A DNA stretch of 64,000 nucleotides, from the NCBI GenBank assembly GCA_902799955.1, contig CADCCQ010000002.1:4017-68016 (forward strand), written 5' to 3'. The notes under the pieces were generated by a model. The model was not told where the DNA came from, did no database searches, and saw nothing but the letters and a program-made list of their open reading frames with translations. A program made the translations under genes and the position numbers. Source of the stretch: an uncultured bacterium (GTDB lineage Bacteria; Verrucomicrobiota; Kiritimatiellia; RFP12; UBA1067). Positions 61,918-63,714 of the stretch are shown here, in pieces; positions within the stretch are counted from its first letter, which is position 1, and each line of letters opens with the position of its first letter.

Positions 61918-62038
61918 ATTGCGGACATTATACCACAACAAAGCCTTGTTGTCACAACTTCCGTGCATCATTCCTCTTCGTCGGAATTCGCACATACGAG
62001 CATTGCACCGCAAATTTCCCCGTGGCGTTATGGGGTTG

Positions 62039-63028
62039 TCAGCTTTTGACGAAGGCCCGGAAGTAGTCGATCGTCTTGGCGAGGCCCTCGGAGAGCGGCA
62101 CCTTCGGCTCCCAGCCGAGCAGCTCCTTCGCGAGCGTGATGTCGGGCTTGCGGCGCTTCGGGTCGTCGGCCGGGAGCGGGCGGAACACCAGCTTCGACTT
62201 CGACTCCGGAAGGAGCCTCAGCGTCTCCTCGGCGAGCTGCTTGATCGTGTACTCGCCAGGGTTGCCGGTGTTGACGACGGGCGCGCCGAGGCCGTGCCGC
62301 TCGCAGAAGGCGTCGACCTCCTCGCGGGGCAGCGACATGTAGCGGCGGATCGCCTCGATCAGGTCGTCGCAGTACTGGAAGCTGCGCGTCTGGAGACCGT
62401 CGCCGAAGAGCGTGATGTCCTCGTTCTGCAGCGCCTGCATTATAAAGTTGGAGATGACGCGTCCGTCCTTCGGATGCATGTTCGGCCCGTAGGTGTTGAA
62501 GATGCGGACCATGCGGGCGTCGACGTTGTACTCGCGCCTGTAGTCGGCGACGAGCGTCTCCGCGCAGCGCTTGCCCTCGTCGTAGCAGCTCCTCACGCCG
62601 ATCGTGTTCACGTTGCCCCAGTAGCTCTCGACCTGCGGATGGACGAGCGGGTCGCCGTACACCTCGCTCGTGGAGGTGTGTATGAGGCGCGCCTTCGTCT
62701 TGAGCGCGAGGTCAAGCATGTTCATTATGCCGAGGACGCTTGACTTGATCGTCTCGACGGGGTTGTGCTGGTAGTGGATGGGGCTCGCCGGGCACGCGAG
62801 GTTGTATATCTCGTCGAACTGCCCCCAGTACGGCTGCGTGACGTCGTGGAGGACGAACGAGAAGCGCCTGTTGCCAAGGAGGTCCTCGATGTTCCTCTTC
62901 GTGCCGGTGAACAGGTTGTCCAGCGCCGTCACTTCGTATCCGTCGTCAAGGAGCCTCCTGCACAGGTGGCTCCCCAGGAATCCCGCCGCGCCCGTGACGA
63001 GCGCCTTCTTTGGTAGTTCTAGTCTCAT
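62039..63028 (-). CDS. UDP-glucuronate decarboxylase (UDP-xylose synthase, SDR family), 329 aa
   Basis: [39 protein letters not shown]. Confidence 0.85.
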
Positions 63029-63031
63029 GGT

Positions 63032-63151
63032 TGGTCGTTAGTGGGTAGTCGTTTAGTGGGTAGTAGTTAGTGGGTAGTCGTTAGTGGGTAGTCGTTAGTC
63101 ATTAGTGGATAGTGGTTAGTGGGTAGTGGATAGTGGCTAGTGGGTAGTCGT
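63032..63151. repeat. 17 tandem heptamers (TAGTGGG / TAGTCGT variants) filling the whole intergenic spacer
   Basis: Units read off directly: tggtcgt tagtggg tagtcgt (+t) tagtggg tagtagt tagtggg tagtcgt tagtggg tagtcgt tagtcat tagtgga tagtggt tagtggg tagtgga tagtggc tagtggg tagtcgt. Confidence 0.9.
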
Positions 63152-63699
63152 CAGGAGGCGGGGACGAGCGACGCCTCCTGCGACGCGAGGAACTCGCGGG
63201 CGAGGGATAACCCGTCGACGGACTCCAGGCCGCCGACGGCGTCGGCGAGTTCCGAGCGCGAGATGGTGTACTCCTCCGCGCCTTTTTTGTGGGTGAAGGT
63301 CAAGTCGAAGTCCCCGGGGTAGTTGAAGAGCATCAGCACGGCCTCGACGAGGTCGCCCATCGGCGGGAGGTCTATGTGCCTCGCCGAGAACGAATACGAA
63401 AGCTCGGTGCCGACGCCCTTCTCGGACTTGAGCGACACGGCGCCGTCGGTCGACTCGCATATCTGCTTCAGGATCGGGAGCCCCAGCCCGACCTTGCGCT
63501 TGTCGTGCTTGCCGGGCTCGGTGTAGAACGGATTGAACGCGCGCGCCTGGGTCGCCTCGTCCATCCCCTTCCCGTCGTCCTTGATCCTGACGGCGATCGT
63601 CGCGCCGTCCTCGACGATCTCCAGCGAGACGTTCCTGGCGCCGGCCTCTATCGAGTTCTGCGCGGTGTCCGCTATCACGTCCGCAAGTGTTGCATGCAT
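63151..63699 (-). CDS. stand-alone GHKL/HATPase_c ATP-binding protein (182 aa)
   Basis: N box ADTAQNSIEAGA, G1 IKDDGKGMD, G2 KVGLGLPILK. Confidence 0.7.
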   Translation of the reverse strand: MHATLADVIADTAQNSIEAGARNVSLEIVEDGATIAVRIKDDGKGMDEATQARAFNPFYTEPGKHDKRKVGLGLPILKQICESTDGAVSLKSEKGVGTELSYSFSARHIDLPPMGDLVEAVLMLFNYPGDFDLTFTHKKGAEEYTISRSELADAVGGLESVDGLSLAREFLASQEASLVPAS

Positions 63700-63714
63700 C
63701 CCCCCACCGCCTTT

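Follow-up and report, generated by a model that had tools for sequence, protein, structure and literature searches.

A heptamer array fills the spacer between two genes

The DNA analysed here (the window) is a stretch of 64,000 nucleotides from contig CADCCQ010000002.1 of assembly GCA_902799955.1, positions 4,017 to 68,016, and the element of interest is a tandem array of 7-nt units that separates two of its genes. The source is the metagenome-assembled genome (MAG) of a member of the Kiritimatiellia from the rumen, 3.8 Mb in 148 contigs with a G+C content of 62%, and the closest relatives with names are Kiritimatiellia/Verrucomicrobia MAGs from rumen and gut. The array makes up the entire 122-nt spacer (63029–63150, minus strand) between two genes that are both read from the minus strand, and on that strand, the sense strand, its unit is NNNACTA. 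Upstream lies a gene for a stand-alone HATPase_c protein of 182 residues (63151–63699, minus strand), whose TGA stop codon at 63153–63151 abuts the first unit. The downstream gene (62039–63028, minus strand) codes for a UDP-glucuronate decarboxylase (UXS) of 329 residues, a UXS1-type extended SDR. A search of the PDB sequences gave this protein a full-length match to human UDP-glucuronate decarboxylase 1 (2b69, E 2e-104), and a search of NCBIfam returned no name above the cut-off. Its start codon lines up with those of its orthologues in an alignment. The names that a preliminary description, made from the letters of the window, had given to the two genes therefore hold, through the full-length UXS1-like match of the one and the HATPase_c domain of the other.

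Read by eye on the minus strand, the array consists of 16 units that end in ACTA, one degenerate unit (ACGACCA) and one extra A. From the upstream stop codon the order is CGACTA (63145–63150), 15 more NNNACTA units, the extra A, the degenerate ACGACCA and ACC, which is followed by the ATG of UXS at 63028–63026, so that the array stops 3–5 nt short of the start codon. On the plus strand the same stretch reads as TAGTNNN units. This agrees with the preliminary description, which had counted 17 units, one of them with an extra T, and had the array fill the spacer from end to end. The alternation of TAGTGGG with TAGTCGT that it had reported is only partial: within the sense units ACTA is constant and the first three positions vary (for example CCCACTA and ACGACTA), with many units reading CTAAC. 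Tandem Repeats Finder reports the array both with a period of 14 (63034–63151, 8.4 copies, 83% matches, score 143) and with a period of 7 (63039–63148, 15.6 copies). A pattern of four ACTA spaced 7 nt apart has 11 matches in the window, every one of them within the array, and none in 100 dinucleotide-preserving shuffles.

Stop codons are present in all three frames of the array on both strands, which confirms that it is non-coding, and the spacer sequence bears out the reported lack of a Shine-Dalgarno (SD) motif, as there is no purine run of SD type ahead of the UXS start codon. A search of the gene strand for a sigma-70-like promoter (a −35/−10-like pair) or a site resembling an intrinsic terminator found neither in or next to the spacer, so that the HATPase gene and UXS are probably co-transcribed. 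The array thus takes up the gap from one gene's stop codon to the next gene's start codon, outside any open reading frame (ORF) and not between promoter hexamers.

A near-consensus sigma-70-type promoter does occur further downstream on the minus strand at 61927–61955 (GTGACA, 17 nt, TATAAT, with a TG; 11 of 12 positions). It is placed just inside or upstream of rsfS, the gene that follows UXS.

Unit number differs between strains

The same locus was recovered from other rumen assemblies by looking up exact matches to the proteins. Four contigs whose flanks are 100% identical to those of the window carry an identical 122-nt array. In ten further contigs the UXS gene differs from that of the window at 10–17 of 990 nt (1.0–1.7%), and here the spacers measure 79, 80, 93, 107 (in three unit orders), 122-equivalent and 128 nt, corresponding to 11–18 units. 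Including the 122-nt form of the window there are at least eight distinct alleles at the locus, and the range of 11–18 units is that of 11 assemblies of the species. Arrays are identical where the flanks are identical, and differences start once the flanks diverge by about 0.5%. Between alleles the interior units are rearranged and both ends are kept: the first unit, CGACTA, directly 3′ of the TGA, is the same in 11 of the 11 alleles seen, and the ~17 nt that lead up to the ATG (63029–63045, minus strand; CCCACTA, the degenerate ACGACCA and ACC) are nearly invariant. Exact-pattern scans of Joint Genome Institute (JGI) metagenome contigs for the locus gave no match. In one assembly of the same species (L152:1444–2325) UXS is called with 293 residues rather than 329, which could be due to a premature stop codon or to a faulty assembly.

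Changes of length by whole units between strains are the signature of slipped-strand mispairing. In this comparison of assemblies the locus behaves as a fast variable-number tandem repeat that is resized by slippage, with unit number differing in whole units between strains whose UXS genes are only 1.0–1.7% apart. Phase variation is defined by frequent, reversible switching within a clone, and the differences seen in the assemblies are all between strains. The description had suggested phase variation. The part of this that stands is the whole-unit change between strains; a classical switch does not fit an array that lies outside the ORF and the promoter hexamers.

A broader form of the same idea is that the array acts as a rheostat or phase-variable element, with slippage altering the length of the spacer and so tuning or switching the translation or the stability of UXS. 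Both the polymorphism of 11–18 units and the position of the array directly before a sugar-nucleotide gene speak for this, and in Haemophilus influenzae a heptamer tract in a 5′ untranslated region (UTR) has been proven to act as a switch with graded output (PMC12721329). Nevertheless, contigs with identical flanks that derive from different samples carry identical arrays, and the array sits neither in an ORF nor in a promoter. Further evidence on this explanation comes from the other arrays of the genome and from the predicted fold of the RNA, both considered below, and taking these into account we think it unlikely.

Arrays of the same kind are found throughout the genome

Tandem Repeats Finder, run on the whole genome, found 146 arrays of period 7 or 8 with a length of at least 40 bp. 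At a length of at least 50 bp there are 52 arrays of period 7 and 48 of period 8, together with 10 of period 6, one of period 10 and three of period 11. In two runs of the ORF caller, 104–117 of the 146 arrays were intergenic and 77–84 were between co-directional genes; as the genes were called with a home-made scorer based on codon usage, these location counts are approximate. The arrays take up a median of 68% of their spacers, and 22 of them fill at least 80%. About seven motif families can be distinguished, NNNACTA (that of the window), RTGTAAA, GGTTGAAA, CTAGAANN, AATYCC, GGGGAAY and AGCTYWA. The search of the rest of the genome for the heptamers of the window, a check put forward in the preliminary description, placed NNNACTA arrays at 14 further loci at least, and the family also occurs in congeners. 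Some spacers are composite, with two or three unit families back to back (C39:17948–18064, C3:46228–46650, C59:3949–4000 and C6:60436–60517), such as RTGTAAA followed by GGGGAAY, or CTAGAAA followed by AGCTC.

The genes that lie 3′ of the arrays are diverse. Among 20 such genes that were examined with Pfam are those for GroEL, phosphoglucose isomerase (pgi), NifU, a thiamine pyrophosphate enzyme of the acetolactate-synthase type, a GHMP kinase, a PfkB kinase, a pyridoxal phosphate enzyme, a tail-specific protease, an SPFH protein, saccharopine dehydrogenase, a GH2 protein and a sialidase-like BNR protein, as well as others. No bias towards surface-polysaccharide or contingency genes was seen among the 20. 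Several are genes, essential ones included, that the cell cannot afford to switch off. With so many arrays before unrelated genes, the array of the window is not a device special to UXS. The link to a surface-polysaccharide gene, from which the preliminary description had argued for phase variation, consequently falls away, since like arrays precede groEL, pgi, nifU and genes for an acetolactate-synthase-like enzyme, kinases and glycosidases.

The other arrays also vary in length. Where the NifU protein is identical, the ileS–nifU spacer still measures 54, 75, 82, 89 or 145 nt, lengths that differ by multiples of 7, and the groES–groEL spacer, most of which is filled by a 108-nt array of the octamer CTAGAANN (C13:37562–37669; L036:1363–1470), ranges from 125 to 199 nt among strains with identical GroES. 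It is implausible that groEL, pgi and nifU should be switched, yet arrays alike in kind and in variability stand before them. This counts against a rheostat or switch before UXS, as does the failure of the 20 downstream genes to show the association with surface or host-interaction genes expected of contingency loci.

The number of arrays within 300–500 bp of a contig end is about double the expected one (8 compared with 3.4, and 11 compared with 5.7), examples being C49:8–224, C76:487–954, C66:189–319 and C37:8–103. Matches to the same pattern also lie near contig starts in several other MAGs. This excess would explain breaks in the assemblies, and it is probable that the repeats break these MAGs.

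The array is specific to this species

The UXS orthologues in nine congeners have other upstream neighbours and no such array; at one of these loci (L008) there is a heptamer of four units about 195 nt upstream. Similarly, the HATPase orthologues in ten congeners are followed by other genes, again with no such array. In three congeners (L064, L066, L068; G016, G008, G006) the following gene is ruvC, with a GTG start codon that overlaps the TGA of the HATPase gene, and this HATPase–ruvC order is probably older than the one seen in the window. Both the array and the adjacency of the HATPase gene and UXS are specific to this species, and the array is young. The genome holds a second UXS-like gene at C1:72583–73552, with 80% DNA identity to the copy in the window, and either of the two may be the orthologue of the single hits in congeners. 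The notion that the array marks a recombination between two arrays of the same family was considered and rejected: ruvC, on C37 in this genome, has an ordinary 23-nt spacer upstream and no NNNACTA array, so that there is no evidence of a reciprocal product.

The groES–groEL locus gives a similar picture. Its array, of the CTAGAA type, is present in this species only, several congeners having a spacer of 21–25 nt with a clear SD and others having unrelated inserts that bear hairpins. As a family, NNNACTA is more widespread than either locus: arrays are present at other loci in many congeners and, across the class, in 24 of 301 Kiritimatiellia genomes and 19 of 142 genera. The reversed control pattern (ATCANNN repeated) had 125 matches in one Kiritimatiellia genome (G199), indicating that another heptamer family has expanded there; this control shows that different heptamers are carried by other genomes of the class. 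RTGTAAA arrays occupy about 45 loci in this genome and are found in 3 of 25 congeners.

The array RNA is predicted to be free of structure

On the sense strand the RNA of the array would be composed of 35% A, 43% C, 6% G and 16% U, with 20 pyrimidine-C (YC) dimers. Its predicted minimum free energy (MFE) is 0 kcal/mol over 142 nt. When a longer segment of 421 nt is folded, the array, together with the initial ~20 nt of the ORF, forms one open loop of ~140 nt, and the G+C-rich flanks pair strongly. The model is thus one of an open linker and not of a structured leader. Genome-wide, arrays in sense orientation fold with a median of −0.053 kcal/mol per nt, compared with −0.248 (p = 5e-8) in a set of 600 spacers without arrays between co-directional genes, and with −0.336 in pieces of coding sequence. 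The idea that all arrays are poor in G on the sense strand was rejected, as several families are free of C instead.

These predictions bear first on the suggestion in the preliminary description that the array might be a structured 5′ UTR, which they contradict. More generally, the array could be a structured element, either a folded, riboswitch-like 5′ UTR or, as DNA, a G-quadruplex or i-motif. The antisense (plus) strand would indeed fold (−29.3 kcal/mol, z = −3.2) and carries GGG runs at intervals of about 14 nt, and G-rich heptamers are known to form quadruplexes in Xanthomonas and Nostoc (PMC4692102). The transcribed strand is nevertheless the one with an MFE of 0, nothing suggests antisense transcription, and Rfam covariance models had no match within 62500–63700 of the window even at E = 10. 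Moreover, GGG runs separated by loops of 11 nt make poor quadruplexes. A structural role is therefore very improbable.

The same predictions separate the array from the heptamer tract of H. influenzae. The (ATCTTTC)n tract in the 5′ UTR of hmw1A forms a long hairpin with a G-rich partner, which is cleaved by RNase III (PMC12721329). Like that tract, the window array consists of heptamers 5′ of a start codon, is presumably transcribed and varies in unit number. The hmw mechanism, however, needs the hairpin, and here there is neither a G-rich partner nor a hairpin, the array being unpaired both alone and in the 421-nt fold. In addition, the tract before the adhesin gene hmw1A stands alone as a contingency locus, while the array of the window is one of more than 100.

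Naked, C-rich RNA directly after a stop codon might, on the other hand, load Rho. In this explanation, Rho bound to the array RNA after the TGA of the HATPase gene would attenuate the transcription of UXS and so set the ratio of the two genes, with the length of the array tuning the loading. Sites for Rho utilisation (rut) have more C than G, are unstructured and extend over about 70–80 nt. On composition alone the array answers to this, with 43% C, 6% G, 20 YC dimers and a fully single-stranded prediction; it begins right at the HATPase stop codon, and rho is encoded in the genome (596.7 bits, the curated cut-off being 509.45). Against this, similar arrays in sense orientation precede nifU, where attenuation would be costly. 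It could also not be a role for the class of arrays as a whole, given that other families (RTGTAAA, GGTTGAAA) are G-rich and free of C on the sense strand, and that NNNACTA arrays in congeners are mostly reversed and so rich in G and U. For the window array itself we judge Rho loading quite unlikely.

The genome does otherwise make use of SD motifs, with GGAG or AGGA found 5′ of 27–31% of starts compared with 8% in controls; the 3′ end of the 16S rRNA was not found in the MAG. The abutment of an array on an ATG without an SD is seen at seven other NNNACTA arrays in sense orientation as well as at UXS.

Some families have a strict strand polarity

Relative to the flanking genes, RTGTAAA arrays are sense in 17 cases and antisense in one in this genome, with a ratio of 13:1 in three congeners and of 30:2 over the four species. 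In this genome GGTTGAAA has a ratio of 9:0 and CTAGAA one of 16:3. The RTGTAAA arrays alternate GTGTAAA with ATGTAAA (for example C9:53216–53294, before pgi, C7:22227–22295 and C58:13556–13616), and each unit of either kind reads as a start codon directly followed by a stop. The family of the window is less strict. About 9–11 NNNACTA arrays are sense and 3–5 antisense here, and in five other genomes the orientation is mostly the opposite, usually with an SD following. An invariable sense orientation of NNNACTA was on this account rejected.

Strict polarity hints at a constraint at the level of the RNA or coupled to transcription. Repeat instability that depends on transcription has been demonstrated for the hmw tract (PMC12721329), and by analogy this may be one possible source of the polarity of the families.

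A protein-binding array was among the roles listed in the preliminary description. The array might be multivalent, with its ACUA(A/C/G) units, or their DNA form, bound by a lineage-specific RNA- or DNA-binding protein, for example of the S1, Csp or KH type. MacGregor proposed a reading of this kind for the TAACTGA repeats (PMC4679880), and it would fit the invariance of ACTA in units whose other three positions drift, the recurrence of NNNACTA at many unrelated loci in the genomes and genera counted above, and the strong polarity with respect to transcription in other families. It has to contend with the occurrence of NNNACTA in both orientations and with the coexistence of at least seven unrelated motif families, each of which would call for a separate reader; no candidate protein was identified. 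We hold such binding to be doubtful. The wider proposal that the loci with arrays make up a post-transcriptional regulon also appears doubtful, since the positions are not conserved between species and the downstream genes have no common function.

Discussion

The array meets the description of a known class of repeats. Long simple-sequence repeats with units of 5–11 nt, among which heptanucleotides are the most frequent, were reported by Mrazek, Guo and Shah (2007), as that study is described in PMC4679880 and PMC4692102. The window array shares with them a tandem 7-nt unit beyond chance length, many arrays per genome, a patchy phylogeny, a restriction of periods that are not multiples of three to non-coding DNA, and slippage as the proposed generator; it differs in that periods of 7 and 8 nt are equally common here and that about seven families coexist and are sometimes concatenated. 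All the features that define heptameric intergenic simple-sequence repeats were found, namely tandem repetition exceeding chance, many arrays, a location between aligned ORFs and whole-unit polymorphism. The short tandemly repeated repetitive (STRR) heptamers of Calothrix, Anabaena and Nostoc, which are cited in PMC4692102, are alike in being families of tandem heptanucleotides across intergenic and intra-operon spacers; they belong to a different phylum and have different unit sequences.

Two systems allow a closer comparison. The GGGAATC repeats of Xanthomonas and the GGGGA(C/T)T repeats of Nostoc are transcribed, lie between aligned ORFs and vary in length among relatives (Rehm et al. 2015, PMC4692102). 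Shared features are the position between aligned ORFs near the upstream stop codon, the extensive variation of length and sequence among close relatives, and the absence of a tie to pathogenicity or surface genes, groES being among the associated genes in both cases. Their units, however, are G-rich and form quadruplexes, whereas the array of the window is rich in C and A on the RNA strand and predicted to be free of structure; and the Xanthomonas repeats lie mostly between the same genes in two species, whereas the two loci tested here are not conserved in congeners. The second system is that of the TAACTGA direct repeats of marine Beggiatoaceae, some cyanobacteria and Bacteroidetes, which are found just 5′ of start codons that lack an SD (MacGregor 2015, PMC4679880). 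These too are heptamers that bear stop codons, run in forward orientation, end a few nt before an SD-less start, have no predicted structure and precede genes of all kinds, including essential ones. The differences are in the unit (NNNACTA), in its number (11–18, compared with 2–6 in BOGUAY) and in the reverse orientation seen in relatives. The array therefore belongs to the long simple-sequence repeats and resembles the TAACTGA repeats in its working, with a different unit. A search of the full-text literature found no paper on intergenic tandem repeats in Kiritimatiellia. The repeat class is a known one, of which the array is an ordinary example, and what is new is the host lineage, the rumen Kiritimatiellia.

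On balance we favour the explanation that the array is a long, STRR-like simple-sequence repeat driven by slippage, which is tolerated as an unstructured linker between cistrons. It would have been born, and would be resized, by replication slippage. If the HATPase gene and UXS are co-transcribed, the array RNA would be a G-poor, C/A-rich linker without structure and with stop codons in every frame, and ribosomes would start UXS from open RNA without an SD. The array may be tolerated, or perhaps mildly favoured, because the start region stays single-stranded in a genome of 62% G+C. As it lies outside the ORF and the promoter, changes in unit number alter only the length of the linker, and expression would probably respond to them by degrees, if at all. 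We consider it unlikely that the array is dedicated to switching a surface-sugar gene on and off.

Several points weigh against this explanation. Slippage alone does not explain why a small number of motif families should turn up again and again, at dozens of loci, nor does it explain the strict polarity of some of them. The conservation of both edges of the array may be the ordinary behaviour of the edges of a tandem array, or it may reflect function. Low structure as a trait of all arrays was rejected, because the palindromic CTAG and AGCT families fold, and the location counts carry the imprecision of the gene calls. We infer co-transcription, variability within a population and any effect on expression from sequence. 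A fairly unlikely alternative is that the arrays, rather than being passive products of slippage, are the output or the targets of a motif-directed system specific to the lineage, either a generator of repeats coupled to transcription or RNA or RNA-binding readers, specific to each family, that make regulons of the operons with arrays. It is likewise only a slim chance that the families (NNNACTA, RTGTAAA, GGTTGAAA, CTAGAANN and others) have been seeded repeatedly into new spacers by such a system, some with near-absolute polarity. Were this so, the array of the window would set the ratio of UXS to HATPase expression.

For annotation, these results advise caution, in that heptamer tracts before sugar genes should not be labelled phase-variation switches without the context of the whole genome. 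As a data point from a new lineage, the locus has its value in a natural allelic series of 11–18 units, an RNA that is predicted to be open, SD-less starts that abut the repeat, and sister families with polarity. Together these make two questions testable: whether such repeats serve as open linkers on which ribosomes load, and whether the number of units tunes expression.

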